Origin: Diadema antillarum | Lineage: Eukaryota | Assembly: GCF_040938485.1 (NCBI RefSeq) | Contig: NW_027271421.1 | Coordinates: 438,567-502,566 of the forward strand | DNA: 64,000 bases | Direction of reading: 5' to 3' | Part shown: piece by piece, positions 302 to 63,477 of the stretch | Numbering within the stretch: position 1 is the stretch's first letter | Layout: every line of letters begins with the position of its first letter | Made by a program: the position numbers and the translations under genes | Notes under the pieces: model-generated | What the model was told of the DNA's origin: nothing | The model's input: the letters and a program-made list of their open reading frames with translations, nothing else | Database searches by the model: none

Positions 302-478
302 AGATGTGCTTGGAGTGTAGACGTTGAGATAGAGACAATCCTCCGATCTGTTCGGGTAGAGAGGGTCAGGAATTTGTACGCAGGCTGGGGCAAACTCGGT
401 GGCGTTTCTCTCGCCCGTCCATGGAGTCTTGCTTTCTGGCTTAGCGAAACGAGCAGGTGGATTGGCGTAGGGAACCCC
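302..478 (-). CDS. ChE-like paralog P1 exon 2 (GVPYANPPARFAKP...[15 protein letters not shown])
   Basis: Reverse-complement translation gives the FLGVPYAxPP and EDCLYLNV motifs. Acceptor ctccag|GGG and donor |gtgagt. Exon is 177 nt in phase 0, like exon 2 of the other paralogs. Confidence 0.7.
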
Positions 479-640
479 CTGGAGTGTCAGATGACATACA
501 TAAGTTTTGCAACAGCAATACTTTCATCAGTTCCATCAAAATACGAAATCTAACTCAGGCAATGACAATGGAGCTCATGCGTTAATTTTACATATCAAAC
601 AAGAGAAGGTTGAAAGACTATAAAGGCACCTTTGTGAACT

Positions 641-667
641 TTGATTTGATTTGATTTGATTTGATTT
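641..667. repeat. (TTGAT)n microsatellite
   Basis: ttgatttgatttgatttgatttgat read directly. Confidence 0.8.
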
Positions 668-868
668 ATTTCTGCTTAATTCCGTTTCATCAAGATATGA
701 TTGTGTACAAGTCAATTATGACAAACAGTATATCAACACATAGTTTTTAGTACAAAACAAAACAAATACAAACAGCTCAGGGAACTTGAACAGAAGGGTC
801 TCCAAAATAAGCCGAGGCTTGACGGTATGGAGACCCTATACTTAGCTACTCTGGATAGAATAAGGGAT

Positions 869-892
869 AGAGAGAGAGAGAGAGAGAGAGAG
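869..892. repeat. (AG)n microsatellite
   Basis: agagagagag... run read directly. Confidence 0.8.
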
Positions 893-1139
893 GGAAGGGT
901 AGGGGGAAAAGGGACAATTACAGAGTGTATGTGTACAGCTCCAACTACTTTACTTTAAAAGTAATGATAATAAATGTAATACGATAATAATATTAAAGTT
1001 AACACGTTCAGTTGCCTTTCCCGTAGTAATGACCGAATATGCACTGTGAAAAGAGTAATGAATGAATGCAAAGCATTCTACATGAGGTTATCTGTCATGA
1101 AATAACAAACTATATCGTGGTTAAATGTGCACAGTAATG

Positions 1140-1800
1140 GTAAGGCACATGGTATACATACATAACGTGCTCATATACATAATATACATATGTGCCTATC
1201 CTATACATACACATACATACCCATATTTATGATATATATATGGATAGATAAATAAATCGATGTATGTATGCACACATACATGCATCATGTATCACGTACA
1301 TATTTATATACATTTGATTATAATACAATAAAGATATCAAAATGTTATCCTTGGGAATACTGCTTGAGGAGGTGAAGTTTCACAGCCTTCTTGAATGAAT
1401 ACATAGTTGTCATGTTTTTAATTTCGTGTCTGAGTCTGAGTGTCTGATAGAATGATGCGCGAGTGCAGTTTTGGGGTTAAATAAATGTAAATTTGTGGAT
1501 TGTCTGGTAGGATAGGAGTGAATCTCTGAATTTGACGGAAATATTCTGCTAAATATTGGAGGCAAGAGATATGACTTGAGGCAACACATAAATACAGCTT
1601 TTTGGAGAAAGTTTATGTCATTTATCTTAACTCTTAAGAGATTTAAGCTGAAAAAACAAGGGGTCGGTGTGATCTCGAGAGCGTGCTCGACTGCACACTC
1701 AATTGCTCTTTTCTGCAGGAGAAGTATACGGTCTGTGATACATTTGTGGGTTGCCCAAATAATGTTGCAATACGATATATATGGCAGGATCAAAGCATTA
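1140..1800 (-). mobile_element. CR1-clade LINE 3'-terminal fragment (ORF2 C-terminus plus 3'UTR with (TATGTA)n-like tail)
   Basis: ORF 1410..1793(-) contains ILPYISYCNIIWATHK...LQKRAIEC and ...HSYPTRQSTNLHL. These resemble the LEYCsvvW / VQRRA / YxTR tail motifs of CR1/L2 ORF2. The minus-strand downstream side (1140-1400) is a TATGTA-type microsatellite tail. It lies in P1 intron 1. Confidence 0.45.
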
Positions 1801-2562
1801 TACAGGTTAAATAATATACACGAGTTGGAAACTTTTACACTGCAGATATACCATATCTATAACACTGTGTATCATACGTCGGGGAAGGCTGTTTTTTGTT
1901 ACATTATTCGATTATGATGTCTAATCCCATTCGATACCATTGCGTAGTGCCAATTAGGGCTTCTAGCCCATCAATGTGATTGATCACACCGATAAACGCC
2001 TAACAACGTGCAGAAAAATCAATCCCATTCGTTGAGAAACATGAACTCCATTGAAAACAACATCTATTCTGAATAAAGATTGAGAAGAGACCGTCTGTAG
2101 AACACATGAAAAGCAACGACACAGTATATCTGGTCATAATGGTCACTAGCTTATTGGAACTAGAATGACTAGTTTTCTGAAATACGAAATCAATTGAACT
2201 GTGGTCTGACTTTCTACAATAAATGCGATGTTATTTATATCCAAAATAATATGTAGGACCGCGTAAAATGCATTTGGAGAAGCCATTCGCAGCGGAAGAC
2301 AATTGGATCCGACAGTATGTCATAGTGGCTTGTAAAATGACTGCGAAAAATTAAGGCGGTGCACGTATGATATATGAAGACTTACATGGTTGGCATAACG
2401 ACGAAAAACGCTCACTGTACTAATGTACTTGAAACTATATAGTGGCATTACTATAATCATCATCAATAGCCATCCGTAAAACTTCGATATAGAGTGCATA
2501 ATATACACGCATACCTTGGTATTGAAAGAAAAAGAGATTACGGATAGAACAGCAACCCTTAC

Positions 2563-2724
2563 CAGAAATACATCGACATCGATTGTTTTGTTGATGAAGG
2601 TGTCTTCGCTGAATCGCACGGTTTTCCCCACAATGATTCCCTCAGCGACATTCACTGCCGGGCTTCTGGCCCGACTTACCCCGAGGAAGGCACCGACCGC
2701 CAGAACAAAAAGTTGAAGTTTCAT
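2563..2724 (-). CDS. ChE-like paralog P1 exon 1 (signal peptide, MKLQLFVLAVGAFLG...VGKTVRFSEDTFINKTIDVDVFL)
   Basis: ATG at 2724, hydrophobic N-terminus, donor ctg|gtaagg at 2563. The 54 codons are homologous to exon 1 of P2, P3 and P4. Confidence 0.7.
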
Positions 2725-24823: not shown

Positions 24824-24942
24824 CTGCATGATGATTTTGCTGATGTAAGGCCTACTCAGCTTGGAGAGGAGGAGGAGGTTGACACAAGCTGCACCCGCAC
24901 TCTGACCGAAGAGAGTTATCTGGTCCTTGTCTCCTCCAAAGG
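24824..24942 (-). CDS. P3 exon 5 (nucleophile elbow variant: [40 protein letters not shown])
   Basis: Acceptor ggtgccag|, donor cag|gtatat, 119 nt. The motif is GQSAG rather than GESAG. Confidence 0.75.
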
Positions 24943-25095: not shown

Positions 25096-25099
25096 TATA

Positions 25100-32906: not shown

Positions 32907-33022
32907 TTAACTGCAGGTAGGTTCATTCTTGTATTCCTCGAACGCCTGCTGCCATGCTGTCATCTCAGTCTTCCAGTCATCATAACTTTCCCGCCATTCC
33001 TTCTCAATGTCACTAATGTCGT
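32907..33022 (-). CDS. P4 exon 10 (terminal; DISDIEKEWRESYDDWKTEMTAWQQAFEEYKNEPTCS, stop TAA 32907-32909)
   Basis: Acceptor ctttccag|, phase 1. WAT-like Trp heptad and C-terminal Cys. Confidence 0.75.
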
Positions 33023-33395
33023 CTGGAAAGAGAGTGAGACAGAATGAAGAATCGTTGTAATTACCACAATTAGCGCTCTTTCTTTTTAGAGTTCAAACTT
33101 ACATGCTGCTCGTCTGGCCGTGCAGACCATTGGCAAATCTCAAAAACGTTTTGAAGTTGCTTTTCTGCCGAGGAATTTCTTATAAATCTCATATTTTAGT
33201 GAAGTTCTGTGATTGATGACATCTATACCCAATTTCATTAAAAAACGAAGATGGCACATTCACACTCTTTACCTTGGAAGAAGATATGACGTTGAAAAAA
33301 AATTAAAAAGCCGAAGACAAATTATAAGGTTGATTGCTGAGCAATTTATATCAAACATATAGTATAACGAAGTGATTATGCTCTCGAAAAAATAC

Positions 33396-33577
33396 CTGTA
33401 AAAGCCACGAGCGACGGGAAGTAGTGGTTCCAGAAATGGCACTGCCTGGCTCTGACAGCCCTCCCTGTTGGCAATCCTATGGCTATCTCCTTGTATGTGA
33501 GTTCAGGGATCGTGTACTCTGGCCAGGCGTACTGTCCTTCCAACGGGTCTGAATCCATGCTCGGCTTACTCGGATTT
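33396..33577 (-). CDS. P4 exon 9 (NPSKPSMDSDPLEGQYAWPEYTIPELTYKEIAIGLPTGRAVRARQCHFWNHYFPSLVAFT)
   Basis: Anchored to ORF 33376..33606. Acceptor attgtag|, donor g|gtattt, 182 nt. Confidence 0.8.
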
Positions 33578-34318
33578 CTACAATACATATAATAGTTGCA
33601 ATCCATTAATGCATTAAGTTCTTATTGTTTAAGTGCATTCCTCACACTGTCACATGAAAAATGGAATCAACGTTTTTAAAGGCACTCAGATTTAAAATGA
33701 ATAAAGGAATTATGTCTTCAGTACAATACAATCAAGACTATCATCTATATATATATATATATATATATACATATATATATCGGTAAAGGGGTCTATTCAG
33801 GATTCGGTTGTAGTTGTAAACAGTGCATTTCATTCTTTGTCTTGCTTACATCTGTGCAGAGGTTTCACATTGCTAGCACTTATAAATATGTAACGTTTAA
33901 CTTTGATAATATGTAAATATTCTAAGGCTGTAACTCGTCACATATTTTCACACCTACTGTAGCCCCTCTGTTAAAATGCAATATTTCTCTTCGAGGAATA
34001 TCTCATCTTCATAATGCCGTGGAAACTACTATATTATTGTGTTTTTGTTGTTTCTTGTGTTCGTGATGTCGTGTGTTTTTTGTTAGGCAGCTCACCACAA
34101 GTTCTGCTTTCTGAGGTTCTGCCTTCCTTGTATCGTTATACAACTTTATGTATGTGATTTACAACATGACAAAAATGGAAAATAAATGTTTACAAACTTG
34201 AACTTGAACTTGATCTATCCAGAGCACAGAACAATATCATCACAGATAAGAGGTATTTGTAACTTTTCAAAATATTAGCAAACTATTTCATTTTTAGTAA
34301 ATTAAATGACTGACTTAC

Positions 34319-34513
34319 CCGGACTTGGCAAAGTTGGTCCAGAATTGCATCATCATAACGGAGAGGGCGTTCTCCTCGTCAGTCATGTTGTGTCCTTTGA
34401 CGTGGTAGAGCTCATCAATGAAAGGGACGCCCCACACAAAAGTCATTTCTTCTCCATGTGTCGCGCCAAGCCAAGGAGTGTTGGGAATTGTTCCCTCGTA
34501 TTCATAGAAGCTC
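34319..34513 (-). CDS. P4 exon 8 (catalytic His: SFYEYEGTIPNTPWLGATHGEEMTFVWGVPF...NFAKSG)
   Basis: Anchored to ORF 34315..34566. Acceptor tttttcag|, donor gg|gtaagt, 195 nt. Confidence 0.8.
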
Positions 34514-35983
34514 CTGAAAAAAAAATCATTAAAAGATATCACGCTGTTCTTACTAATACAAAACAACTGTTTTGAAAGTCTCTAACTGACTGTAAGGCAC
34601 AAGTTGAAATAGTTAATTTCACTCAATATACCAATACTCTCAACTTTCTCTCTATAAAAGCGTCTGAAAAAGAAAAAAGCATCGACATCATTATTGTCCA
34701 TGTTAGGAGGAGGTTGCATCTGTTTTGTGTTTGAGAATGGCAGGTAATTTTATTTTGTAAATTATGTATTGATGTGTCGCCAATAACAAATATTGCAAGT
34801 GTTTTACCAAGGTGTGAGCTTTTCCAGGCTTGACAGACCAATGGTCGCACATATTATTTCATGAAAAAATAGCAATTATTACAAACTACATGATTAAGTT
34901 CTGTGAAAGAAATGCTTCCAATTACGGGCATGAGGTATAAGCCTAGTTATGTTGCTGTGTAATTACAATTCGCCAGTTCGTAATTAGCTCATGCACACAT
35001 TGGTACAAGTGACCTTTTTTTTTTTCTCAGTTAGTTAGGCACTTCACTCGTTTTCAATGCGACATAATGCATAAGCTTGCCCGACGTAACAATTTATGGA
35101 ATACAAACAAAGAATGAACTTGCGTTTAAACCAGGTGACCAGAATGGCCAATTGACATTTCAGGAGGCATCCATTTCATTGTTTTATATTGAATGCATTA
35201 ACAACATTTTCTATTGACATTGCCAAATACCATGCAGGCTTACTGTCAGGTGGATGTGCTGGCAAGCGCCATCTAGTCTATGTCATAAGAATGTATGAAT
35301 AATTATCACATCACAGATGCTTATCTCAGTGAAATAAGAAACCAAAACGCCTGTTGTCACAAAATGACATTTTTTTTTTGCTCATGCGCAAAGTGGAACT
35401 ACGAACTGGTGATCAGGCCGGGCTACTAGGTAGATGATAGAGTCGGGGGGGGGGGGGGGGGGGGGCGGAAGGAGGGGTCCTCCTAGGACTTTTGACATAA
35501 ACCACTAAATTAAATTCTAAAAGGGCACATCTTTCTTAAGTATTCTGTAGTTTCTTTAATTTCTGACGTATTTCCTTGTTTATCGACTTTCTGTTTTACA
35601 TTGTTTTTCGATGATCTTTGTCGCCGACACTGCTGCGAGAGTGAAAATACGTCACTGACTGATATCAATCAACCAAAGCAAAAATAAACATTTTTAAACC
35701 AAATTTGACCGAAGGTACATTTACATTGAAATTGTACATGAATTCACGTTTTTGAGCAACTTAGGTCTGAAATGTATGTAGAGCCTTCATAATATTTATG
35801 CGTCATTTCAAAACCGCTCGCCCTGGCGGCGCAAATTTAATCTTAAAAGGTGCGGGAGACCAGAAAGAAAAAGAGTAGTGAAACATCGCAGCAACAGTTT
35901 TTTGTTTTTTGTTGTTGTTGTTTTTTTTTCTTCTGATGGTGACGTATGTTTGGGGGGGGGGGGTCCCAGAAACCCTGCCCCCA

Positions 35984-36992
35984 CATAGTAAAGCTGGTAT
36001 CTCACTGAGCAGCGAAAGTTTGCGAACGTAGCGAATTTGAGATTCGCCAACTTTTCTGACGAATGTTTGCGAAAAATCAAAGTTTGCTTCTGCCAAAGTT
36101 CGCTTTAGCGATGTTTAGCGACAATTAGCAACACTTCAGCGAATGTTTGCGAAAATGTTTGCGAAACACAGGTGGCGACCATTAGCGAATGTTAGCAAAT
36201 GTTAGCGACAATTTTACAAATGTTAGCGACAGTTTTGCAAATATTAGCAACTGTTTGCAAATCCTTTGCGACAATTTTGCGAATGTTCTTGGACCTAGAA
36301 AAGTACCAGGCGATTATGTATAGTCAGACCCATAAAACGAACGTAAAACCTTCCACTGAATTCAGATCTCTTGTGACAACCGTTCAAGATGAATGTCCAG
36401 TATATGGAAATACATTTCTGCCAAGAAGAGGCTCAATGTGTTGCTATCCTTGAAGAGCTGCTTTGTCAGGCTGCTGCTACAGCTATTGTGCAGCATAAGA
36501 GAAATAAAATAAAGAAAAACAAGAAAGGAAGAAGAAAAGAAAGACTGTTTGGGTCAGAGAGTGGTTGTTGCAGAGGACAGACTTCCAGCAATTACATGAT
36601 GGAGATGTCAAGAGCTTCAAGAACTTCCTTAGAGTGGAACCTTGTCTGTTTCAGAAGCTTTTATATAGGAACCATATGGTTACTTGTTCGCTAGCAGTGG
36701 CGAATCAAATAAAAATGTTTGCGACACCGTATTACGACCGCTTGCGAATTCTTACCAGTGTTTTGCGAATGTTTGCAACTGTTAGCGAAAATACAAATTC
36801 GCAAATGTTCGCAAAGAAATTTTGAACATGTTCAAAATTTCTTTGCGACAAGAAAAACTGTTTGCGACAATAAAAACCGTTTGCGAACTTTCTTGCGACT
36901 GTTAACGAGCCTTTTGCAGCCCTTTACGAACCCTGGCGAAATCCCAAATTCGCTACGTTCGCAAACGTTCGCCGCTCAGTGAGATACCCCCT
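35984..36992. mobile_element. Harbinger/PIF-like non-autonomous TIR element (~1 kb)
   Basis: About 50-bp TIRs: GGTATCTCACTGAGCAGCGAAAGTTTGCGAACGTAGCGAATTTG... / revcomp. The interior has GTTAGCGAC/GTTTGCGAA short repeats and a degenerate ORF with ...DGDVKSFKNFLRVEPCLFQKLL..., which resembles the N-terminal motif of Harbinger-type proteins. Direct repeat TAAAG flanks it at 35979-35983 and 36993-36997. It is absent at the orthologous site in P5 (57259-57285). It ends 33 bp from the P4 exon 7 donor. Confidence 0.5.
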
Positions 36993-37024
36993 TAAAGGTT
37001 AAAGGAACTACTCGTGATCCATAC

Positions 37025-37470
37025 TTCGTAGGTACGTGGGTCATGAAGTACTGATAAACGGGCCCGCCGTGTGATGCATGTGCTCTAGTGACATAATCAG
37101 TTGGACAACCGTACAGCAAATCTCCATAGAAATCGACCACCGAGTTAAAGTAATCCGCAGTAATGTCGTCTGCAATACTCCAGTCGGTATACTCCTGATC
37201 TACAGAGTCGAATACGATCGCATCCTCCAGACCGTTGTAGAGAGCCAGCTGGGAGTAAATCGAAGCAAGGTAAGTGGCGCGGTCGTAAGGGGGCGGTGTT
37301 TCACTACCCCAGTAGGCAGGAAAAGATACGTATGGTATCAAAGTCCCCTCGTCCTTGTTGAAGCCGGCAACGATTGGCACATGGGCAAAGTCCCCTTTGC
37401 TATAGAGGTTCTTTGGTGTATCTTCGAGAAACGTACCGTCTACAGTCACTCGATACCCTGCAAGATATAT
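37025..37470 (-). CDS. P4 exon 7 (IYLAGYRVTVDGTFLEDTP...GFNKDEGTL...YGCPTD...FMTHVPTK)
   Basis: Anchored to ORF 36976..37449. Acceptor gctcag|ATA, donor aa|gtatgg, 446 nt. Confidence 0.8.
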
Positions 37471-39317
37471 CTGAGCATCGGGATGGCGGAAGAGGAATAA
37501 TATTTACATACCAATCTAATGATGTGTGAAAAACTTGTTTGACAAAGCATATTGTTTATAATTTGATTCATCTCTGCGTTTTTCATAAAGTATTTACAAC
37601 ATAAACATTTCCCACTACTATTCACATTATATCAAACGCAAACTGAATAGTCATATAAAATGTACCAACAGTAAAATATTGTATAGGGGATTAATCATAC
37701 AAATCCAATTGGTAAATCACCGATTATTTAATCGATTTAATACATTAAAATGCAGGAGACCATCTTAAGCTGAAGCTTGAATTTGATTGCAGCCTCTGGA
37801 AAAGCATATGGCTTATATTTCTTTACAATCATTAGATACAAATTGTGTAACCGAATACGGTAGCTACAATGAAAATGCATCAGTGAAAGATGAGTTATGG
37901 TGCAAGTTCATACATGTATGTGCAGTTTTGTTGTATTATTGTTAATGCTATTTCTAAAAAAAAAACTGTGCAGATTAATTTTCATATTGAAAAAAGATAT
38001 ACATAATATTTATGCATGCATATTATATAAGGACACGAGTCATGTAATATAACATTGTGGTGGAAAGAGTAAAGTATACTTGGCAGTCATCACTGTGTCC
38101 GCAGTATAATCAGAGCCTATAAGGTGATAGCCTTAAAGGTGATACTAACATGAGGTATTGCCAGCTGCTAGTATGCGCATGTCACAATCGTTAACATCAA
38201 TCATTTTAATGGTTTGGAGTTCTTGTTCGTACTTACTGAAAACCGTACAGACAACAGCGTGTGTTGGTGTGTATACCACTAATCTGTCTATGGATCATGT
38301 GCACGCGCGCATACACACACATACACACACACGCACACATTGACTTTTTTTTCCTTAGTGGGCATTTATTGTGTACAGAGGCTTGGAAATTGAGCAAAAT
38401 CTGAAACCTAACTCCAGAAATAAGCATGAAATTCGAGTAATTTTTTTTTTACATCATATGGTACATGTACCCGTATTAAGCCACCTCCAAACCATTTACA
38501 GCACATATTAGCTATTACCAGTGTCGATTTCATTAATATATATATATATGTTTTTAACATCTTGTGTTAATTATAGATGTTATATGTATGGATATTGCAG
38601 TAAAATCTAGGAAATTATGAATCTTAAGAGGGAATCAATGTCGTTGACAATCCAGCAGAAACATATTTTTAGACTTATTTTATAGTAGTGGTGATGACAT
38701 CATCGAATCATCTATAGTGATCTGTTATTTCATATTATCAAATTGGTTGGTCAAATACCGGTTAGTGATTGGCTAAACACAGTAACGTGATGGAGGCACA
38801 TTGGTTATGTTCGTCCATGGAAAAACATTTCCACGTAACAAATGACAAACGATACAAAATGTTTGAACGATCATATTTTTCACGCAATCGATAGGATAAA
38901 TTTGCCTATTCCAATATGAAAGAGCAGATTTGACTTATCCATATAATATAACAGATGATGAGTTTTGTTGTCGGGAACATGTACCAAACGTTCTACCCTC
39001 AGGGTTTGAAAAGCTATTTCGGGAATCTATAAAGTCTCTCGACTTCGTCTCGGGACTTAATAAATAACCTCCCTTAAAAGCATTCAAACCCTTCTTGTGG
39101 AACATTCGGTATGTTCCCTCTCCCTGCCAGTCATCATCTAAATTTATATAATATTTCATAAGAAAAAATATGAAATTTGATAGTTCTCCTACTCTTCTTC
39201 TATGAGTTTACCCTATCCATGAACGTGTCCATGAAAATCCATCAACTGGTTAAATGATTTTTCTCTTTAGATACAGGTTACTATAGATGGTGCACCGCGT
39301 TGTCATGGCAGCCATAC

Positions 39318-39482
39318 CTTCTCGGCGGTCGCTCTTAGTTTGTTGGCATCTTTCTCTCTGAGACATTCTACAAGAGCCTCAGAACTCGACGTGCTGCAAT
39401 TCATGGCCACGCCCACAGCTCTCGACTGCCCAAGCTCTTTATCTAGATCGTTGAAAGTCCAATCAGCCACTGCCGTCCCACT
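39318..39482 (-). CDS. P4 exon 6 (SGTAVADWTFNDLDKELGQSRAVGVAMNCSTSSSEALVECLREKDANKLRATAEK)
   Basis: Anchored to ORF 39303..39596. Acceptor gatgcag|AGT, donor aag|gtatgg, 165 nt. Confidence 0.8.
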
Positions 39483-39981
39483 CTGCATCAGTATCAACAT
39501 AAAAAGGAATTGAAATAGGTCACTGGAATGTATCCGCACAAGACATACACAGAAAACAGCTGATGCACGAGAAAGCACAGAAACATTGGAACACATTTTA
39601 ACAGAATATCATCATGCATGTAGTATTTGGGAAGAATATTTAAAATGATGGAACACGAAATTAATGTCAGCCTTAGTTGAATGACGAAGATACACTATTT
39701 GGGATAACTGTGAGGTGCCAATAGTGCTCTCTTGAATCAGGGAGGTGGGAAGAGTCTTCCCACTTCCCTGTTTGAATCATTGAATAGGGCTTGTCTACCT
39801 ACGCACGTGAAGTCTGGATCCAGCGGACTACGTGGAGGAAACCAACAGATTAGTTCAACGGGCGTTGTGAAACGCAACAAGGGCACAGTAAGCATGGTAA
39901 GACATGTAGGACACTGATGGCCATTCACTGCATCCTGACTTGTCTCCAGCCGTCTTGATTAAGTCTTGCCACTGGAAATAA

Positions 39982-42900
39982 ATGGGCCAGGACGAGAGAC
40001 TTCCCTGCGCAGCTCTTCCTCACCTTAATGCAATTCACACTCAAGTCACAATATCACCCATTTTCATCCTAATCATTCCAAAGATGATACCACTAAGCAT
40101 AGGTAGCATAGTATGGAATATGCGCACTCTGTTGGACCGTGCCGGGACTGAAAGACCTGAGAGAAGGACCGCACTTATTGCTGGAGAACTAGCAAGGTAC
40201 AGGGTACAGATTGCCGCCCTTAGCGAAACACGCCTTGCTGTTGGAGGTCAACTGTCATATACACGCCGGTTACACATTCTCCTGGATCGGTCGCAAACAA
40301 GACGAACGTCATGAAGTAGGAGTCGGATTTGCCATTATGGGGAACCCAAACCCAAGGAGCAATGTGGATTGAGTGAGAGCAGCAACATTAGTAGAACAAA
40401 TCAGTGAAAGTTCGAGGAAAATCGGACAGTCGATGAAAGAGTTATGAATTTTTAAAGTGTTGGTGTTGGAACCGCTGGATGAGGAGACTGCTAGAGGTTA
40501 TGACATTGAGTGGACAACAATAGAAAGAAAATATAAAGGGAATTCAATAACAATTCGTTTTTCATGGAAATGACACATTCCATCAACTTGATACTGATGT
40601 TAAGGGTAGCAATTATTCCCTCTGCTTTCTGAAAGCGGTTAGTCATGTGTTCTTTTATTATGGTAGAAAAGTGATTTTTTTTTTTTTGGGGGGGGGGTGG
40701 AATTCCCTTTACATTTTCTTTACATTGTGTTCATGGCGATGTGTTCTACTAATATTAGTGCTTTCTCTCAATCGTTATTGCTCTTTGGGTTCCCTTTAAA
40801 TCCAACTGAGTCAACAAGCCGGCTGTGCCCCCAAGGGTCTATCAATCATCGTCTAATGACTGTCCGACTTCCATTACCAAGAAAGCGGTATGCCACAATG
40901 ACCAGCGCCTACGCAACCACGATGACCAGCCCTGATGGTGTCAAGGAAAGATTCTATGAGTACCTGCAAGCGACTATTCCCGCTGTGTCCAGATTAGATA
41001 AACTCATCACCCTTGGTGACTTCAAAGCTAGGGTCAGCACCGACTATGCATCATGAAAAGGAGTCCCATATAAGGAAAATGGTCTGGGAAATGCAACAGC
41101 ATAATGGCTTATTGCTGCTGGAAACTTGCGCTGCACACCAGCTGCTCATTACCAATACAGTCTTTCGTCTACCGAACCGTTATAAGACGACATGGATGCA
41201 TCCTCGCTCTGAGCACTGGCACTCGCTGGATTACCTTATCGTTAAACAAAGGGACGGGCAAGACGTTATAGTCACAAAAGGGCTTTTTACACTTGTAAAT
41301 TTTTGCTTAGCCCCGGACCAACGGTGGAGCGAAGGGGGACCTTAGCCCCACCGTTGGTACGGGACTATCCTTAGCCCACTTTCTGTGTACACTCATTTTT
41401 GCCAAAGTGGGCTAGCCCCACCGATAGTACGGTACTATCTGGCCCTGCAAAATAGCAGGGGTTAGCACCGCAATTGCGGTGCCAAGCAAGTGAGTGTAAA
41501 CAGAACGAAAAAATAATCCTGGGCTAAGCGACGGAGACGAAGTCCGACCCTCACTGACCAATCAAAAACGAGGTAATCAAGTGCTGCTGATGCGTGCGTG
41601 TACGTGTACAGTACACAGCGTAATTATGAATATTCATGTGGTTTGGAAAGTCCGGGGCTAAGAAATTCGAGTGTAAAAAGGTCAGTTTTCTCCTTAGCCC
41701 CGGGCAAGAGATAGGACGGGACTAATTGGCGAGTGTAAAAAGCTGAAAAAATTGGTACGGGACTAACGATAGTCCTGGGTCAGAGAAAGTCCGGGGTTAA
41801 GAAACACAAGTGTAAAAAGCCCTAAAAGCCATGTGCGGTGCAGCAAAGTGCTGGACAGATCACCGTCTGTTGATCTCAAAGCTCAGTATCAGGATTCAAC
41901 CACGTAGAGGTTTTCAGGGAAAGATGGCATTGAAACGTTAGATGTTAAAGTTGGAGAGAGATCAGGTACAGCAGTCACTCATTGAAGAAATCGACAGCAA
42001 GTTGCAACAACAAAGTTTCAGCTCACGGGATGTTGAGTCCGACTGGATTCTCTTTCGCAGCTCTGTCTATGCTGCCGCCTCTGAGACGGTGGGTACGTCC
42101 CATCACTTAACTAGGACTGGTTCAATGACAAGAGCGAACGCATTCAATCTTTGCTCGAAGAGAAGCATCGCCTTCCGAGCACACCTCAACGACCCGACAT
42201 CAGCTTCCAAGAAAACTGTTTTTTACAACATCAGGAGAAGCGTACAGCTGGAACTATGGCAAATGCAGGATGCATGGCTAGCATAAAGCTGATACGATAC
42301 AGTCTTATGCTGATCAATTTCAATTTCAATTTCAATTTTATTTCCATTTCCATTGAATAAACAGGGAAAATTATATACAATACATTCATCGACATGAAAA
42401 ACATAATACAGACAACACTGGATCACTTCAAACAAAATTTGTAGATCTACTTATTTTGATGTCCCATGATATGCACTGGACTTGTACTGCCACTGCCTAG
42501 TAATTTCTATATATTTTATCTCCTATGGCGACCAGGGATGCCATCTCATATCGCTTTTTATATTGGAAAAAATATCAACTACCGTGTATTATGTATATGG
42601 ACCAATTTGTTTGGGCTCGTCTCTCCTCCTCAGTGCAGCAGATGGAAACGTACTGATCACAGACACGAAGAAGATTGTTGAACGCTTGACAGAACACTTC
42701 AAAATGTCCTCAACGGTCAATCTGCCATCAGCGAGTAAACAATCACAAGCCTGCTCCAAGTTCCAACCAATCACTCTCTTGCCGATATCCCCACAGAAGC
42801 CGAAGTGGAAGCAGCAGTAAAACATATTGTCCTGTTGAAAAGAACCTGGCGCTGACTCTATCCCTGTAGAAATCTACGCCTCTGGTCGCCATAACCTTGA

Positions 42901-44400
42901 CAAAGCTCACCGAGCTATTCCAGTCCGTCTGGAACGAAGAGAAAATCCCACAGGAACCCTGGATGCTTCTGTCGTCCATTTGTACAAGTACAAAGGAAAT
43001 CGAGCTTGCGACAACTACCGGGGAGATCTTTGCCAGAATCTTGCTGAACCGCCTGATCGACCACTTAGAGGAAGGTTTACAACCTGAAAGTTAATGCGCG
43101 CTCAGACAGAGTCGCAGCACAGTAACACAATGGATATGATTTTCGCAGCACGTCAACTCCAGGAGATATACTAGGAGCAGAATGTAGGTATCGACACCAC
43201 CTTTGTAGACCTGACTAAGGCTTTTGACACCGTATGACTCTGGACTCTTCAATGATCATGGCCAAATTTGACTGCCCTGCAACACTCATCTCACTGGTAA
43301 AACAGTTTCATGCAAGCTAACGTGCAGGATAGCGGTGAACGCTCAGAGCCCTTCCCTGTCACAAACGGCGTGAAACTTGCCCCAACCGTCTTAAGCAAGA
43401 AGTTCTCAGCAATGTTGATATGCCTTTCGGGCGGGAGATATCGTTGTCGATTTCAGATTTAGAACTGATGGAAAGCTGTTTAACCTACGGATACTGCGGA
43501 CAAAATCAAAATTCCGGGAGGATATCGCCTGTGACTTTCTCTTCGTAGATGACAGCTCCCTGTATCTCAGGGCGAAAATCCAATTGAATATGCTAGTACT
43601 CAGTCTGACATGCAAGAAATCATTGACCAATTCGCCAACGCCTGTATCGACTGAAGTGATGCATCAGCCAGCTCCTACAATTCCCTACACAGAGCCAACC
43701 ATCATGATTAATGGCGAGAAGCTGAAAGTGGCAGACAAATGTGTTTACCTTGGCAGCACAAAGCCAGCTCGGCTTTCAGCAGACTCATAGACGGTGTGTG
43801 GGAAAGAAGAGGAAAACCTTCAAACCAAAGTATAGCTCTGTCGCGCAATAGTCATGCCCTCTGTACTGTATGCCTGCCAAACATGGATAGTGTATAGCCG
43901 GTATGCCAGGCAGCTGAACGCCTTCCACATAAGATGCCTCCAAAACTTGCTGCACGCGAAATGGCAAGACAACGTGCCAGATACCAAGATACTTCAGAGA
44001 GCCCATCAGATGGAGAGTATATTCATGAGATGCTCTAAAGCGCTCCCAACTCAGGCGGGGCATGTACTTCGAGTGTCCAACGAACATTTACCAAAGTGAC
44101 TGCTCTATGGTGAACTAATGGAAGGCAAGCGCTCTCACGGAGGTCAGAGGAAGCGCTACAAGGGCACATTAAAAGCTTGGATGAAATGCTGCACCATCAA
44201 TCCTGACACATGTGAAGCAGCGGCGCTAGACCGATCTGCCTGGCGATCTGTGGTCACCTCTGGCCCTTATTAGACTACGAAGTGAGACGTGTCGAGGAGC
44301 AGGAAAAGGAACGGCAGCGACGAAAATTAGCAGAGCGACCTCTCAGCCTGGCCTACCTCCACGGCATCAGATTTTTTTTTTTTTTTCAGAGCGAGGATCG
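39982..44400 (+). mobile_element. Degenerate non-LTR retrotransposon (LINE, L2/CR1-clade-like), antisense in P4 intron 5
   Basis: Frameshifted ORF pieces: an APE-endonuclease N-terminus (IVWNMRTLLD...RPERRTALIAGELARYRVQIAALSETR, ...LITLGDFKARVSTDYAS), RT motifs (FVDLTKAFDTV..., ...ADD...), and the tail ...HIRCLQNLLHAKWQDNVPDTKILQ...HVLRVSNEHLPK. Multiple stops and frameshifts. The ends are approximate. Confidence 0.65.
41280..41821. mobile_element. MITE nested inside the P4 LINE copy (542 bp)
   Basis: Perfect 16-bp TIRs GGGCTTTTTACACTTG ... CAAGTGTAAAAAGCCC, with internal GTGTAAAAAG and TAGCCCC subrepeats. The flanks are acaaaag|...|taaaag. The P5 LINE copy is uninterrupted at this site (gtcgccaaagccatgtgtggtgcagcag, around 59330). 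Confidence 0.6.
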
Positions 44401-44898
44401 GACTGTTTAACCATCTTCGCATTCACGAAGTGTAATGATACTAGAAGTTATGGTCGCCTTCGCCCGCGAAGGACGGACATCTTCATTGAATCATTATTGT
44501 CACTGCAAAACAGTCATTGTATACATGCAAGTTCCTGAGAATCCTTCCCTCCTTTTAGGTTTGTTTTGTTATTTTGGTGAAGTTGGAATGATAAGTTAAT
44601 GTAAAACGTTAATTGCAATCTAGAAAGAAAATGGAAGGACATAACTATTTAGTAAGGAGTACTCTTAATATGGCTACATGTAACTACACAGGAAATGATT
44701 TATAGATATTGACTTTGTCTTATGTTGAATAACATCATATGGAAAAAAAATTGGATTCTTTTTTTCAGATGTGTATTAACAATTGGGAAGCAGAGAACAC
44801 CGACTACCTTGATTGTATCAAGTAATGTATTTTGGGGGGTTAAATATGACTTGTATGTTTTTTCATCTTTTATATGCAATTGGAAAATGAAACCAGAT

Positions 44899-44926
44899 TA
44901 GAGAGAGAGAGAGAGAGAGAGAGAGA
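44899..44926. repeat. (GA)n microsatellite
   Basis: Read directly. Confidence 0.8.
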
Positions 44927-45471
44927 ATGCACGAGTAAGCAATGTGAACAAGAAAAGCTGAAACAACTGGAAAGATAATAAGCGGAGTCAATTAATATCA
45001 CTGAACACCCTACAAACATTGCGAAAATGCATTAGCAGGCTAATTAGTTTGTTCTTGTGAATGAAGCATGCATGTACACGTGCAAATATTTACGTTGGCA
45101 AGTACAACGACAAAAGATATTGTGGATCTTGCATTCTTGAGAGCATTGTTCTAACAGAGAGTATAGTTTACTTATTATGAAATTGAGAACTCATGTCATG
45201 GTACTTGCACTTTAACACCAAGGAAATTCTCGGATTGGTAAATTCACAGACCTGTTTAACAAAGTGTAAGTGTACTTAAACGCACTCTCTCTCTCTTCGT
45301 GTGGTTACTATTGTTTGTCACATTAATTTTCTCCGCTCAAATAAACAGTAATGATATAACGACAATTATACATGTAACAAACTCTTTTTTTTAATGAATA
45401 ATGATGAATCAACAGTCAATAATATTTGTCTTCTCTGTCACATTGATGACAGTTTTGTAAAGAAAATTTCA

Positions 45472-45648
<177 letters not shown>

Positions 45649-45706
45649 TCAAGAAAATCAGAGGATGGAGAGAGATAGGTGATCATAATAAATGCATGGA
45701 TAGATC

Positions 45707-45901
45707 GGGTCTAGGGCAATTACCCCATGGCAATTACCCCCCACCCTTCCCCAGTCCTAAATCCTAATCCTAATCCTCAACCTAATCCTAACCCTAACTC
45801 AAACTCCTAACCCTAAACCTAACCCTAATCTTTGCTCTAACCTTACCACTAACCAGTATTTAGCCGGGGTAATTACCCTCTGGGGGTAATTGCCCGGATA
45901 C
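45707..45901. mobile_element. Small insertion carrying degenerate telomere-like (CCTAAC/CCCTAA)n hexamers between inverted GGGCAATTACCCC-type ends
   Basis: A 10-bp direct repeat TGGATAGATC sits at 45697-45706 and 45902-45911. Inner inverted repeats are gggcaattacccc...ggggtaattgccc, and the core is cctaatcctaatcctcaacctaatcctaaccctaac.... It is absent from the equivalent position of P5 intron 4 (63190-63340). Confidence 0.5.
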
Positions 45902-47194
45902 TGGATAGATCCCATAAAGATTGACTGGCAGACTTTATATAAAGAGAAAGGAAATGGAATGAGAGAGATATATATAGAGAGATATGTAACTTATTATCAA
46001 AGTGATGAGACTCAATACTAAAAAATGGCTGAATTCAGATATGTGTTCTGAAGTCGTTAACTCATGCTGAAACTATATAATGTATTACGTTCTTTACTCC
46101 ATGTGGTTTGTTATGCTCAAAACCACTATTCCATTTTGTATAAACAGACAATAAAGCTGACGAAGACCTGAGGTCGAAAGCTTCTACCTGTACTACCATC
46201 CGGCATCGTGCGACGTCTCTTGTCTTCATTAACTATATTACATATATGGTTAGCATTGTGTACATATATTTCTGTTCAGTCTTACAGTCCTATGGAAATC
46301 AATATACATTTTTAATAATAATAATAATATTATTATTATTACCATTATTATTATCATTATCATTATCAATATTATTATTCATAACATTTATATAGCACAT
46401 TATCACATGTAATGTCTCTAAGCGCTACGGGAAAAAATAGAAAAGGAAGAAGAAGAAAGGAAGAAAGAAGAAGAAGGTATACGGATTCAGAGACGGTAAG
46501 ACATGAGTAATAGTCATAGAACTACTCAATGAAAAATACGGTTTTAACATGGATTTAAATTTGTCTACTGAGTATGTTTGTTTCAAACATTTAGGTAAGC
46601 AGTTCCAGGGTTGAGGCAATGCTGACTGAAATTATCTTAAACCATAGGATTGTGTATTGAAAGGAGGAGGTATTAAAAGTGATTTGTTGTTAGACCGCAA
46701 GTTCCGGGAGGGTAGGTATTCAGTTATCAACTGTTGAAGATAAACCGGTGCAATATTTCGCAAACAGTTGAAAGTTAACAAGAGAATCTTAAAGTTAATG
46801 CGGTAGTTCTCTCAGTAGTGGGGTAAGCGACTCACGTGAACGACGTTTAGCAAGAAGCCTGGCAGCTGAATTTTGAACTCTCTGCAGTTTGTTGATTTGC
46901 GCATCAGGTAGACCGTACGAGAGACTATTGCAAAAGTCAATGCGAGACATAACCAGTGCCTGAACGAGTCTTTGGCTTGTCTTTTAAGTCAGAAATTGGC
47001 AGATGCTGCCAATTTTGTGTAGGGCAAATGAGGCTGATCTGCACACACTTTTCACATGAGCCTTCAGTTCACACGAGTCTTCAAACTGACTTTAACTACT
47101 GACAATATTTGAGATATTAACTGTCAACACTAAATCTTGCAGTATCCTGCAACCTGCATTTGCTATGCATCTGCATTTACTATGATTACTTAAA

Positions 47195-47550
47195 GGGGAA
47201 GGCTAGTAACTGATCAGTGGGAATCAGTGGAAATGCTGGGAGATGATTGTTCCAATCCTTATGGGATTCATTCAAGAGTTCATTGTATATCTATTGTTGT
47301 GTGAAAATGATTTGCTTCAGAATGGTCTCATATTCAAGTAATGTGCAGTTTAATGCTTCCAGGTTAGCGTCCCTGGTCAGTGACGGAGCATTAATCTGCA
47401 CATTACTTGAATATGAGACCGTTCTGAAGCAAATCATTTTCACACAACAATAGATATACAATGAACTCTTGAATGAATCCCATAAGGATTGGAACAATCA
47501 TTTCCCAGCATCTCCACTGATTCCCACTGATCAGTTACTAGCCATCCCCT
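47195..47550. mobile_element. Foldback (near-perfect palindrome) element, ~356 bp
   Basis: The arms are reverse complements. ORF-track entries 47247..47453(+) and 47291..47497(-) differ only near the palindrome centre. Termini are GGGGAAGGCTAGTAACTGATCAGTGG / revcomp. TTAAA flanks it at 47190-47194 and 47551-47555. It is absent at the orthologous site of P5 (gattattaaaacaaatgg, around 63800). Confidence 0.6.
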
Positions 47551-47645
47551 TTAAACAAATGGTTGATACATGAAATCACGGAATTAATGTCATATCTATC
47601 CCAATATCAGTTACCTATTTTGCTCTGATACCTGGGTATTATTAC

Positions 47646-47723
47646 CTTCAATGTTAGTATAGACCCACTTGAGAGCCGCTACCTGATCCAGCATACCAAC
47701 ATTACCAGGAGCTTCTTCATCAG
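47646..47723 (-). CDS. P4 exon 4 (ADEEAPGNVGMLDQVAALKWVYTNIE)
   Basis: Acceptor caccag|, donor g|gtaata, 78 nt. Confidence 0.75.
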
Positions 47724-48132
47724 CTGGTGGAAAATAAGATTGAGAGGAATTATCATTTGAAGAACAGGTGTAAAAAGTAATGTCAGGACTGACTAATCAG
47801 AACAATGTCCGTATTTCATGTCCGTATTACATGATTAAATCGCTCTGTTTTATATTCATTTGGCACCTGTGGATCAATAGCGTCATTTGAATTATTTTCT
47901 TCAAAAATCTTGTTTGGAGTGGAGATATATCTGCCTACTTTTTCTTCATATCTGTTCTTCTTGGGAGTCAATATGTATTTTTTATTCATCGACAGGCGGT
48001 ATTGACATGCTGTATCTTAATCTATAGCTTCTATATTCATTATGGATGCACTGTGATTGTCACACATGATCTAAACATTTGTGACAAAAATATTCTTTTT
48101 CTTTTAAATCTATATAAGAGATAAGAACTGAC

Positions 48133-48292
48133 CTGTGGTGAAAAAAGAAAAAATGTTCAGGCGGTAGTTGATAGTTACGATTATGACGTCACCAACAGAG
48201 ACCAATGGGACGCCGCTGAGTTCCGCTGTCATCGCGGTTCCAATGGAGAAAGCGCCACCATGAATAAAGACCATGACCGCCGAACCGTTCAT
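48133..48292 (-). CDS. P4 exon 3 (MNGSAVMVFIHGGAFSIGTAMTAELSGVPLVSVGDVIIVTINYRLNIFSFFTT)
   Basis: Anchored to ORF 48110..48301. Acceptor gataaag|ATG, donor g|gtcagt, 160 nt. Confidence 0.8.
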
Positions 48293-49071
48293 CTTTATCA
48301 TTCAAAACAATATCGATAATTCATGCCTATATTATATCTGTCGGAATTATTCATAGGACTGGAAGTGATATTTATCACAGACAAATTATCACAAAGTAAT
48401 TTCGACGACGTTAATCCTGATAGCCGATATTCTATGCTAAGAGTGATCAATGAATTTCCTCTCCATATTATAAAACAAGATTATTATATTTAATATACCA
48501 TCAACAGAACACATTGGTGCTAATAACTATAGACTATGCTTAAAGGGGTAATGATTATATCATTATATTCTACTCTATTAAACTAATATGTGGTTAAAGG
48601 GGTCATGGTTATGTCATTATATTCTACTCTATTAAACTAATATCAGTATTATCAATATCATTACTATTATTATTGTTATCATATTATAAAAGGAAACTCC
48701 GAAGCCATTCTATTTATTGAATGAAATTAGGAGTATTCGACGAAGGGACATGTATATGCCTCTAAAATAAAATAATGAATTAGGCATGAAATAACGCCTG
48801 TTTGCTTTTGTTTTACATTGTGTTAGAATAAATGTTGGATATTTGAAATAATTATTTATCTGTTTTTATTGTCAGATTCAAACAGCATTGCGCTCAATAA
48901 GTTCGTTCAACTGACTTTGTATTTCTTTTATGTATGAAAAAGAAATACAGAAATAAAATCAAAATCAATCAAATCAAACCCCACCGCTTTGCGGTAAAAA
49001 TAAACAACAACAACAACAAACAAAAAAAAAAAAACTCTGGCGCGAAGACACTTGCCCTTGATGAATCCTAC

Positions 49072-49254
49072 CTTTGGATTAGGAGCAAACACGTTCAAAT
49101 ACAGACAGTCTTCTGACATACCAGTAGGCGGGAAAAAGCCAAATACACCTTGCTGACACACAACTTCAAATTCCGTAGCGTTCCTTTCTCCTTCCCATGA
49201 AGTCATATTCGTGGGCGGAGCGAATCTCTCTGGAGGGGCTGCGTAAGGCACCCC
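49072..49254 (-). CDS. P4 exon 2 ([61 protein letters not shown])
   Basis: ORF 48928..49251. Acceptor gtatag|GGG, donor aag|gtagga, 183 nt. Confidence 0.8.
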
Positions 49255-49963
49255 CTATACATTGGTAGAAATAAAAACAAAAAAAAAACAAAAATTAATA
49301 CAATCAAACAAAGCTAATTCTGTGGAGATGATAATGTCAATGCCTCCATGGCAGTTTAGGCTTCGGTGAAGAGGGTTTTACCGTGGTTACAAAATGACTA
49401 TGATATAATAAAGCTTGTTCTATAACTAAAATACATCCCACGCAATTTCACCTTATTGGTAAACCTGTCTGATTCGAGTCAATGCTTTTACCAGTCTTGC
49501 AATAATTTTAACGACTGGCGTTGAACATCTTTAGTCATCATGATGATTTACATGAGAAATAAACTCCGTTTTTGTTTTGCTTCTTTTTTTTTCTTGTTTG
49601 GTTGTTTTGTTGTTGGTTTTTAAATGGAGATAGAATCGCATGGGTCGTACGGCTGTCATTGTCTGTAAGTTAAGTCTTCTCAATGGCGCATTCCAACACT
49701 TCACTCAACGTGCTGCAAGAGTGTCTCTTGATGACTCTTTCTGGTAAGAAGAAAGACTTTATTCCAGTGTACTAGTAAGTGAGTCTGCATACTTGTGAAC
49801 CAAGAGGTTAGACTGTATACAGATACTGATGTACTAAGAGGTATATAAGAATGTATAGATCTGCATGGTGTACTAAGAAATAAGAATGGTTACTTGTGTA
49901 CTCAGTGGAAGTCAAATTGGCCTTAAAGTCCACTTTATAAAGTTGACCTTTTTTTCAACTCAC

Positions 49964-50125
49964 CAAGAAAACGTCGACATCTCGAGTCTTGTTGATGAAC
50001 CTGCTTTCACTGAAAGTCACCGTCTTTCCTACCAGAGTTCCTTCTTTCACCGTAACTCTCGGATTCTCAGCATTCAGTGGTGCGCAAATGGCAAAAATTG
50101 CCAGCAAAGTCCACAATAGCTTCAT
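49964..50125 (-). CDS. P4 exon 1 (signal peptide MKLLWTLLAIFAICAPLNAENPRVTVKEGTLVGKTVTFSESRFINKTRDVDVFL)
   Basis: ATG at 50125, donor ttg|gtgagt, 54 codons. Confidence 0.8.
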
Positions 50126-54678: not shown

Positions 54679-54794
54679 TTAATTGCAGGTAGGCTCATTC
54701 TTGTATTCCTCGAACGCCTGCTGCCATGCTGTCATCTCAGTCTTCCAGTCATCATAACTTTCCCGCCATTCCTTCTCTGTGTCACTCATGTCGT
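54679..54794 (-). CDS. P5 exon 10 (terminal; DMSDTEKEWRESYDDWKTEMTAWQQAFEEYKNEPTCN, stop TAA 54679-54681)
   Basis: Acceptor cttccag|. Homologous to P4 exon 10. Confidence 0.75.
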
Positions 54795-55526
54795 CTGGAA
54801 AGAGAGGGAGACAGGATGAAGAATCGATGTGATTACAATTGGCGCGCTTTCTTTTCATAGCTCACACTTACATCACATCCTGATTTGTCAACCCGTGTGC
54901 GAACCATTGAAAACATTTAATAAACGCTTTGGAGTTACTTTTCCGTCAACACATTTTAATAAATCTTGTATTTTTATTGAAATCGTAGTCCTATTTCACA
55001 GAAAACTAAATGGCACGTTGTGACCATTAACCTTGGAAGACGATGTCGATGTTAAAAAAAAAATCAAAAAGCCGAAGACAAATTATATCATTCCAATTTG
55101 CTGTCTCAAACATGAATAATTGTTAGAACTCATTAGCTTGTCTTATACTATCTGTCACTCTGTGCAATTACAGTGCGACTGACGAAAAAAAAAGCAGAAA
55201 TCTAGTATCGAGTTGTTATACGAAATTACATGAGGTAGTGCAAACCAAACTTCAGTCCTATACGTTTATAGGCCTACAAAGCGAAATTATATTGTATAGG
55301 CAAAGGGGAGTCATCTACACTTTGCTATATAGGGTAAAACTGTTTAATTGCTACAACGACATGGTGACTGTTTCAAGACATTGGTTATTCCCTTATAATG
55401 GAATTGATACACACTGACAGACAGACAAACATACACGTGCACAATTGTTTCTTTATTTTTGGGATAGATGGACAGTACATGTCAAATCTTACATAGGAAC
55501 TAAGTGATCATTGTCTCGAAAAATAC

Positions 55527-55708
55527 CTGTAAAAGCCACGAGCGACGGGAAGTAGTGGTTCCAGAAATGACACTGTCTGGCTCTGACAGCCCTCCCTGTG
55601 GGCAATCCTATGGCTATCTCCTTGTATGCGAGTTCAGGGATCGTGTACTCTGGCCAGGTATACTGTCCTTCCCACGGGTCTGAATCCATGCTCGGCTTAC
55701 TGGGATTT
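55527..55708 (-). CDS. P5 exon 9 (NPSKPSMDSDPWEGQYTWPEYTIPELAYKEIAIGLPTGRAVRARQCHFWNHYFPSLVAFT)
   Basis: Anchored to ORF 55489..55812. Acceptor atcgtag|, donor g|gtattt. Confidence 0.8.
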
Positions 55709-55959
55709 CTACGATACATATAATAGTTGCAATCCATTAATGCATTAAGTTCTTGTTGTTTAAGTGCCGTCCTCACACTGTCACATTCCCTATGCAAAAG
55801 TGCAAAATGCAATTAATTTTTATAAAGACAATCGGAATTTAATTGATTAAGGACTATAATCGAGAACTTTTCATCACAGATAAGAGGTATTTGTAACTTC
55901 TTAAAACATTAGCAAACTACATTTGTATTTCATTTTAGTGAATAAAATGACTGGCTTAC

Positions 55960-56154
55960 CCGGTCTTGGCAAAGTTGGTCCAGAATTGCATCATCATAAC
56001 GGAGAGGGCGTTCTCCTCGTCAGTCATGTTGTGTCCTTTGACGTGGTAGAGCTCATCAATGAAAGGGACGCCAAACACAAAAGTCATTTCTTCTCCATGT
56101 GCTGCGCCAAGCCAAGGAGTGTTGGGAGCAATTCCTTCGTACTCATAGAAGCTC
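55960..56154 (-). CDS. P5 exon 8 (catalytic His: SFYEYEGIAPNTPWLGAAHGEEMTFVFGVPF...NFAKTG)
   Basis: Acceptor ttcaag|, donor gg|gtaagc, 195 nt. Confidence 0.75.
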
Positions 56155-57297
56155 CTTGAAAAAAAAAAAAAACATAAACAATATTACGCTGTTCTTACCA
56201 ACACAAAACAACTGATAAGAAAGAATACTTAAATGAGTTTAGAAAGTCTCTAACTGAATAAAAGTTGAAATATTGTGTAGTTGAATTCACTCAACATGCC
56301 AATATCCTCAACTGTCTCTCTAAAAGTGTCTAAAGTAAACACAACAAACAAACGGACAAACAAACATCGACATTAATTGTTGTCCACTTAAGGATTAGGT
56401 TGCATCTGCAATTTTATTTTGTAAATTATGTATTGATGTGTCGCCAATAACAAATAATGCGCGTGTTAAACCACGGAACCAATTCGCACGAAAGCATATA
56501 ATTTTATGAAATAATAGCAATTATTACAAACTACATGATTAGGTTCTGTGAGAGAAATGCTTCCAATTATGGGCATGAGGTAAGCCTACTTATGTTGCTG
56601 TGTGACTATAATGATGACCGATCACAGAAGGTATGTCGAGCTACTTAGGTAGGTGATAGAGCGTGTGTGTGTGTGTGGGGGGGGGGGTCCTCCCAGGCCT
56701 TTTCGCCATAAAAACTCCAAAAGGGCATATTTTTGGTGTACATATTCTTTTTAGTGTTCCTCACAAATGTAAGTGAAACATTGTGCAATCAAAATATTTT
56801 CTAAAGTATTCTGTTGTTTCTTTAATTTCTAACGTATTTCCTTGTCTGTCGACTTTTTGTTTTTCATTGTTTTTCGATGATCTTTGTCGGTGACACTGCT
56901 GCGAGGGTGAAAATATGTCACTGACTGAATATCGACAAAAAAGAAAAACAAAAGGAAAAATAAACATTTTCAAATGAAATTTTACAGAATGTTAATTTAC
57001 ATTGAAATTGTACATGGATTCACGTTTTTGAGCAAGTTAGGTCTGACATGTATGTAGAGCCTACATAATATCGTTACGCGTAATTTCAAAACCGCTCGCC
57101 CAGGCGGCGCAAATTTGATCTCAAAAGGTGCGAGAGACTGGAAAGTAAAAGAGTAGTGAAACATCGCGAAGATAGTTGTTTCTTTCTTCTTCTTTTTTCG
57201 ATGGTGACATGTCGCGTGAAATGTCGAAGGGGGCTCCCAGCAACCCCCCCCCCCCCTCGATTTAGTAAAGGTTAAGGGGACGGCTGGTAATCCATAC

Positions 57298-63068: not shown

Positions 63069-63233
<165 letters not shown>

Positions 63234-63377: not shown

Positions 63378-63477
<100 letters not shown>

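Follow-up and report, generated by a model that had tools for sequence, protein, structure and literature searches.

The DNA analysed here, a window of 64,000 nucleotides from Diadema antillarum, holds part of a birth-and-death tandem array of predicted secreted, cholinesterase-like type-B carboxylesterases (Table 1). A six-frame motif scan of the 64-kb window found four carboxylesterase-type nucleophile elbows, all on the minus strand, and five tandem gene copies, here P1 to P5, were seen by tblastn with an approximate human AChE sequence as probe. With splice junctions settled using retrieved database proteins as templates, the three complete genes, P2, P3 and P4, resolve into ten exons each, joined by GT-AG junctions throughout and without a single in-frame stop. 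The database protein that matches the two exons of P1 has the elbow GESAG, which lies outside the window. Neither Rfam models nor a tRNA scan gave a match anywhere in the window.

Table 1. Positions in the window of the esterase genes, their elbow and triad codons, and nearby repeats.
Feature	Position	Strand	Remarks
P1, exons 1-2 only	302..2724 (exons 2563-2724, 302-478)	-	matches XP_071499714.1 (P0135)
P2, 10 exons, 602 aa	4832..17550	-	100% identical to XP_071499715/6
P2 elbow exon	10044-10162	-	GESAG at 10113-10127, codon GAG
P3, 10 exons, 610 aa	20139..28949	-	100% identical to XP_071499733.1
P3 exon 5, the nucleophile-elbow exon, 119 nt	24824..24942	-	acceptor cag|CC at 24942, donor CAG|gtat at 24824
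P3 elbow GQSAG	24893-24907	-	Gln codon CAG 24902-24904; Ser codon 24899-24901
P3 other triad codons	acid Glu 23142-23144; His 21801-21803	-	
P4, 10 exons, intact 601-aa ORF	32907..50125	-	
P4 elbow exon	45475-45593	-	GESAG 45544-45558; Glu codon GAG 45553-45555
P5, exons 4-10	54679..63973	-	exons 1-3 beyond window end
P5 elbow exon	63072-63190	-	GVSAG 63141-63155; Val codon GTG 63150-63152
P5 other triad codons	acid Glu 57621-57623; His 56097-56099	-	
Palindrome, P3 intron 5	24445-24614		near-perfect, ~170 bp
T16 run inside the palindrome	24560-24575		
Palindrome terminus, P2 intron 1	15765-15799		35 nt, exact
(TA)n microsatellite, P3 intron 4	25094-25167		~70 bp

The elbows differ in the residue before the catalytic Ser (hereafter elbow-X), and re-reading the codons bears out the first-pass annotation of the window, which had assigned GESAG to P2 and P4 (GAG in both), GQSAG to P3 (CAG) and GVSAG to P5 (GTG). 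The base that it singled out in the Val codon, 63143, is 8 nt off: the diagnostic base is 63151, and 63143 belongs to the codon of the pentapeptide's final Gly. Its figure of 92% identity between P4 and P5 holds for nucleotides (92.9%) and fails for protein (89.1%, with 47 residue differences over the 432 codons shared). P5 does retain the Glu and His of the triad, as had been stated, and the Ser too, and all seven of its exons within the window have an open frame and GT-AG introns.

The best database match of a rough P5 concatenate, at 98% identity, is XP_071499740.1, a 'cholinesterase-like' protein. This RefSeq model (P0001) is a chimera in which P5 exons 1-7, with GVSAG, are joined to P4 exons 8-10, so that P5's own intact exons 8-10 plus P4 exons 1-7 are skipped (window 54679-63973, 32907-34513); unlike it, the models from D. 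setosum and from a second D. antillarum contig use P5-type 3' exons. P4 is annotated by NCBI as a 275-aa fragment only (XP_071499726.1), which runs into intron 7 despite the intact ORF. Because the NCBI model of P5 is chimeric, the annotation gives no unambiguous support for expression of the gene in the form modelled here, and the database members of these clusters are all genome-derived predictions.

P2, P3 and P4 match the COesterase profile PF00135 with 425-430 bits against a cut-off of 27 (E about 1e-128), and the partial P5 with 270 bits. Ser, acid Glu and His are kept in all four of the genes P2-P5, and oxyanion-hole motifs were found in the forms HGGSF, HGGGI and HGGAF, that of the P5 type being seen in the full-length relatives P0123 and P0121 only. 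Among solved structures the best matches are AChE of Torpedo, human AChE and human BChE, and since they reach E values of about 1e-100, the fold is already fixed. The elbow-X Val of the P5 type aligns with Glu199 of the Torpedo enzyme and Glu202 of human AChE. A Glu before the catalytic Ser (Glu202/199/197) is conserved among cholinesterases, and Glu197 of BChE lies 3.2 A from the bound quaternary ammonium in the choline pocket (PMC6149722). As predicted from their sequences, the proteins of the window are cholinesterase-like carboxylesterases, not demonstrable cholinesterases.

A single base separates the Val codon of P5 from the GAG of P4, as it would if GTG came from a fault of assembly or sequencing or from a rare variant in the individual sequenced, a reading raised in the first-pass annotation. 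We give it practically no credence. Clustered with XP_071499740 at 90% identity are another D. antillarum copy, XP_071492944 (P0123, on a second contig, of 2.94 Mb), and three D. setosum proteins; P0123 has GVSAG at the protein level, and so has D. setosum XP_072173758 (P0121). When P0121 was threaded exactly onto its locus on the independently assembled D. setosum chromosome OZ188199.1 (L001), the Val codon was again GTG, and comparison of the orthologous position in a related species thus finds a syntenic gene that reads like P5. In D. setosum the GQSAG gene (P0128) comes directly downstream of the GVSAG gene, and next after it stands a gene of 601 aa, as long as the P2 ortholog (P0130); on the other side, upstream of the GVSAG gene, there are two GESAG genes, and the relative order matches that in the window. 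GVSAG therefore stands in three independent sequences, and no independent GAG was found.

We placed the change on a simple neighbour-joining (NJ) tree of 96 mostly echinoderm homologs, drawn without support values. Window P5, P0123 and P0121, all with Val, form a clade whose sister is window P4, with Glu, and whose next outgroups all have Glu, which argues for one E-to-V change on the P5 stem. This topology indicates that the change was a single GAG-to-GTG transversion, probably made after the P4/P5 duplication and before the split of D. antillarum and D. setosum; P4 and P5 differ by a dS of 0.16, about 2.3-fold the value between orthologs (0.07). Substitutions over the 432 codons were polarised against P4 and the pair of upstream paralogs in D. 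setosum, counting unambiguous changes by parsimony. The P5 stem carries 16 nonsynonymous and 5 synonymous changes (omega about 0.85, from a small count of 21), the P4 branch 16 and 19 (omega about 0.22), and P5 after the species split 13 and 18; by Fisher tests the stem differs from the post-split P5 (p = 0.023) and from the P4 branch (p = 0.03). Changes on the stem include E208V and Q230H; the tripeptide behind the catalytic-acid turn, LIP, became F-(L/F)-L there, and its residues align with the pocket-lining Tyr337-Leu339 of human AChE if a one-residue gap is allowed. The stem omega of about 0.85 is compatible with positive selection and with transient relaxation alike, and gene conversion in the array could distort the branch assignments. 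The counts, small as they are, fit a burst of change in the substrate pocket after duplication, followed by renewed constraint.

One idea about the remaining charges was rejected. If elbow Glu loss had been compensated by relocating the charge to the position equivalent to Gln228 of human AChE, Glu there should go with that loss; the counts were 6/30 and 12/66 (odds ratio 1.1, p = 1). Both P4 and P5 have Glu at the Gln228 equivalent (MESG, not MQSG), and P4 thus has both Glu residues.

The first-pass annotation had also suggested that Val might mark an incipient loss of activity in P5, and decay is a reading that the data address directly. By Nei-Gojobori estimates, P5 and its D. setosum ortholog (97.0% amino-acid identity, dS 0.070, dN 0.013) have a dN/dS of 0.184 (Fisher p = 5e-6), as against 0.32 for P4 and P5 (dS 0.163), and all P5-type sequences still have Ser, acid Glu, His and the oxyanion motif. 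An incipient pseudogene, drifting after the loss of the elbow Glu had crippled catalysis, would account for the raised N/S ratio on the stem and for the missing clean P5 model at NCBI, and the residue lost is indeed the family consensus (86/120). Such a gene should not show a dN/dS of 0.18 between the orthologs of two species (p = 5e-6), nor keep its ORF, every splice site and the triad intact in both, and an older GVS[AS]G lineage is common to Diadema and Lytechinus; we consider decay very unlikely. P5 is, on these estimates, constrained, with a signature unlike that of an incipient pseudogene. The P3 pair gives a dN/dS of 0.185, and by this measure the GQSAG of P3 is conserved as strongly as the GVSAG of P5. 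Purifying selection of this kind shows that the protein matters, not that ester hydrolysis continues.

Two observations concern P3-type genes. The P3 ortholog pair has a dS of 0.21, higher than the 0.07 of the P5 pair. The P3-type copy on the 2.94-Mb D. antillarum contig (P0002, XP_071492981), which is only 95.3% identical to window P3, reads NKDKA at the catalytic-acid site where window P3 and D. setosum have NRDEA, a change of Glu to Lys. Among the Val, Gln and Gly members listed, all keep Ser and His, and all except P0002 keep the acid.

Val at elbow-X had been called unusual for the family, and it is a minority state: among the best 120 homologs the elbow is GESAG in 86, GQSAG in 9, GVSAG in 5, and GVSSG and GVSCG in one each, with Gly, Ala, Phe, Leu, Cys and His variants scattered among them. 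The description goes too far in that 7 of the 120 have Val (about 6%, against about 8% for Gln) and that the column, with 15 Fitch parsimony changes over 96 sequences, ranks at the 37-40th percentile among 555 columns; 0 changes were counted for the Gly, Ser and Gly columns beside it. BLAST neighbourhoods point to at least five independent E-to-V events in echinoderms: in the P5 lineage, in a lineage of Diadema P0024, P0136 and P0137 with P0027 of Lytechinus pictus (GVSSG; reciprocal best hits), in P0032 of L. variegatus, in P0028 of S. purpuratus and in P0065 of Asterias. E-to-Q has at least three origins within the Diadema expansion on the NJ tree, each common to both Diadema species. Gln, Val, Gly and Ala are the single-step replacements of GAG that were seen; Asp and Lys occur in none of the elbows recognised in the 120 homologs. 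Similar variants are catalogued in arthropods, with GVSAG in LvCXE15, GVSSG in LvCXE19 and GQSAG in LvCXE5 of L. vannamei (PMC7432913) and GVSAG in EoblCXE11 of the moth E. obliqua (PMC5741679).

The array as a whole has Glu, Gln, Val and Gly at elbow-X. The Gly members belong to the P1 subgroup: P0131, P0132 and P0133, on the same and the second D. antillarum contigs, have GGSAG, and D. setosum P0006 has GGSVG. GGSAG/GGSVG members of this subgroup read MQSA, not MQSG, at the Ser229-equivalent motif.

GQSAG had been put forward as the hallmark of insect juvenile-hormone esterases (JHE), and P3 fits all five motifs, RF, DQ, GQSAG, E and GxxHxxD/E (as ARF, LDQ, GQSAG, RDEA and GATHSED), of the pattern quoted for the insect enzymes (RF, DQ, GQSAG, E, GxxHxxD; PMC7432913). 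If this marked a JHE-like enzyme, P3 would act on a sesquiterpenoid ester. The fit loses its force on closer comparison, as P2, P4 and P5 match every one of these motifs except the Gln, and RF, DQ, E and GxxHxxD/E, being present in all paralogs, do not discriminate. The nearest relatives of P3 are echinoid GESAG paralogs (57-64% identity), arthropod matches reaching at most 34%, and P3 nests inside the Diadema cholinesterase-like expansion in a tree built without insect JHE sequences, its distance from JHE being judged by best-hit ranking. With P3 among echinoid GESAG paralogs and at least three origins of GQSAG in Diadema, the pentapeptide is no pointer to JHE, and a JHE-like P3 seems to us improbable in the extreme. 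Juvenile hormone is not known from echinoderms. For a shrimp CXE with GQSAG, too, the authors noted that it is not a JHE ortholog (PMC7432913). The resemblance of P3 to JHE is, on these placements, a convergent single-residue state and not family membership.

The array itself appears to be in turnover. Between its GVSAG and GQSAG genes D. setosum has no counterpart of P4, nor were COesterase remnants found there (L001 21073-28880 vs window 32907-50125); the two species therefore differ in which genes the array contains. What D. setosum has instead is the pair of upstream GESAG genes, P0122 and P0125, with a dS of 0.127 to each other, and P4 was considered as the ortholog of P0125 and rejected, its dS being 0.21 as against 0.07 for true orthologs. 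The identity of P3 and P4 is 58-72% over exons 1-8 and 81% in exon 9 (20861-21042 vs 33396-33577), and their exons 10 (20139-20287 vs 32907-33022) are nearly identical over the displayed stretch up to ...CCTAC, which suggests that the T-peptide end may have been gene-converted between these otherwise old paralogs. Window P3 ends in ...NEPTLSRISNLSKENVT (20139-20215, the 3' end of exon 10), the second-contig copy in ...NEPTCN and the D. setosum ortholog in ...NESTCK; since P3 diverges right after CCTAC, the window allele is without the C-terminal Cys of the T-peptide-like tail. The palindrome in P3 intron 5, ~210 bp downstream of the elbow exon, has arms that are 93-98% complementary and contains a T16 run, and an exact copy of its 35-nt terminus stands in P2 intron 1; the element resembles a MITE-type repeat. 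A (TA)n microsatellite lies in P3 intron 4. The RefSeq model of the D. setosum P3 ortholog, P0128, includes a 14-nt micro-exon (L002 18365-18378), an alternative exon-7 acceptor and a 3-codon first exon, an arrangement that may bridge some disruption where exon 7 begins or may be an artefact of annotation.

Altogether, we consider it likely that elbow-X diverged among the paralogs of the array, that the E-to-V change of P5 was fixed on its stem and followed by purifying selection, and that P3 and P5 are hydrolases. In this model, the residue before the catalytic Ser is the homolog of Glu202 of human AChE and Glu197 of BChE, a carboxylate in the choline or alcohol pocket that influences active-site electrostatics, and elbow-X is one position of paralog divergence: P2 and P4 have Glu, P3 has Gln, P5 has Val, and others on the same contig have Gly. 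Relaxed or positive selection would have acted on the P5 stem, where the three residues after the catalytic-acid turn were probably remodelled, and purifying selection since, with the Ser-Glu-His triad intact. In cholinesterases the mutants E199Q, E202Q and E197Q keep activity with a reduced kcat/Km, and their organophosphate aging is much slower. P3 and P5 would still be hydrolases, with altered pocket electrostatics and specificity; without the pocket carboxylate they would have a shifted substrate preference and/or a lower turnover, as well as slower organophosphate 'aging', and neither gene would be on its way to loss. The urchin proteins are already without Trp86, and the carboxylate is presumably less essential in such a pocket, which would explain its repeated replacement by neutral residues. 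Because the E-to-V change arose within the replacement burst on the P5 stem, a functional shift in P5, which the first-pass annotation had raised beside decay, is plausible.

Purifying selection would fit a binding role equally well, and the lost pocket carboxylate and the pocket-lining residues remodelled on the P5 stem might also be expected if P5, and perhaps P3, were a non-catalytic or very slow ligand-binding or scavenger protein, constrained for binding and not for turnover in the manner of other cholinesterase-like proteins. Known non-catalytic members of the family usually lose the Ser, whereas here both species have kept Ser, acid Glu, His and the oxyanion-hole motif since they split, and we regard such a binding role as unlikely. 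We return to the preferred reading, that of diverged hydrolases, with an extension that is possible though tentative: the P5 lineage may have neofunctionalised through an adaptive burst that gave a hydrophobic alcohol pocket, with a new specificity or a role as a non-aging organophosphate or toxin scavenger, and elbow-X may be a recurrent 'tuning knob' in echinoderm esterase expansions.

The elbow variants are, as we read them, ordinary paralog diversification in a well-known enzyme family, to which dating and evidence on selection are added here. They provide natural esterases in which the Glu202 equivalent became Val or Gln and which appear to have been kept under purifying selection since before the two Diadema species split, while one Val lineage is retained across distant echinoid orders. 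For the annotation of carboxylesterases they advise caution, in that a non-consensus elbow need not mean loss of function. The P4/P5 pair, with its changes polarised by outgroups, offers a natural experiment on what the elbow residue does in enzymes other than true cholinesterases. Gene counts and comparisons in D. antillarum, a species of conservation interest, would be misled by the chimeric P5/P4 RefSeq model and the under-called P4. The practical value of these results is modest.

Several known systems bear comparison with the array. With AChE and BChE, the urchin proteins share the fold family and the Ser-Glu-His triad, the variable residue aligns exactly with Glu202/199/197, and the C-terminal exon, which has W-x6-W-x6-W and, save in window P3, a terminal Cys, can be aligned with the T-peptide. 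They differ from these enzymes in having no choline-binding Trp86 loop, in place of which HMMER alignments with Torpedo and human AChE show a 9-residue gap at ...SEMWNPN..., in the absence of the elbow Glu from P3 (Gln) and P5 (Val), though not from P2 and P4, and in an AChE_tetra (PF08674) score of about 17 bits, under the cut-off of 25. The engineered human AChE E202Q (PDB 1F8U), the second-best PDB sequence retrieved, has in FGQSAG the elbow of P3; that enzyme is a true AChE mutated in the laboratory, whereas the Gln of P3 is natural, conserved between species and set in a pocket without Trp86. Insect JHE and P3 have GQSAG in common, along with the generic motifs RF, DQ, E and GxxHxxD/E; they show no phylogenetic affinity, GQSAG having arisen independently several times in echinoderms. 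Finally, the CXE families of arthropods with mixed elbows are likewise lineage-specific expansions, mostly GESAG, in which a minority with Val, Gln, Gly, Leu or Phe keeps the triad; they belong to another phylum and expanded independently, and the papers that describe them are catalogues without evolutionary dating of the substitutions.
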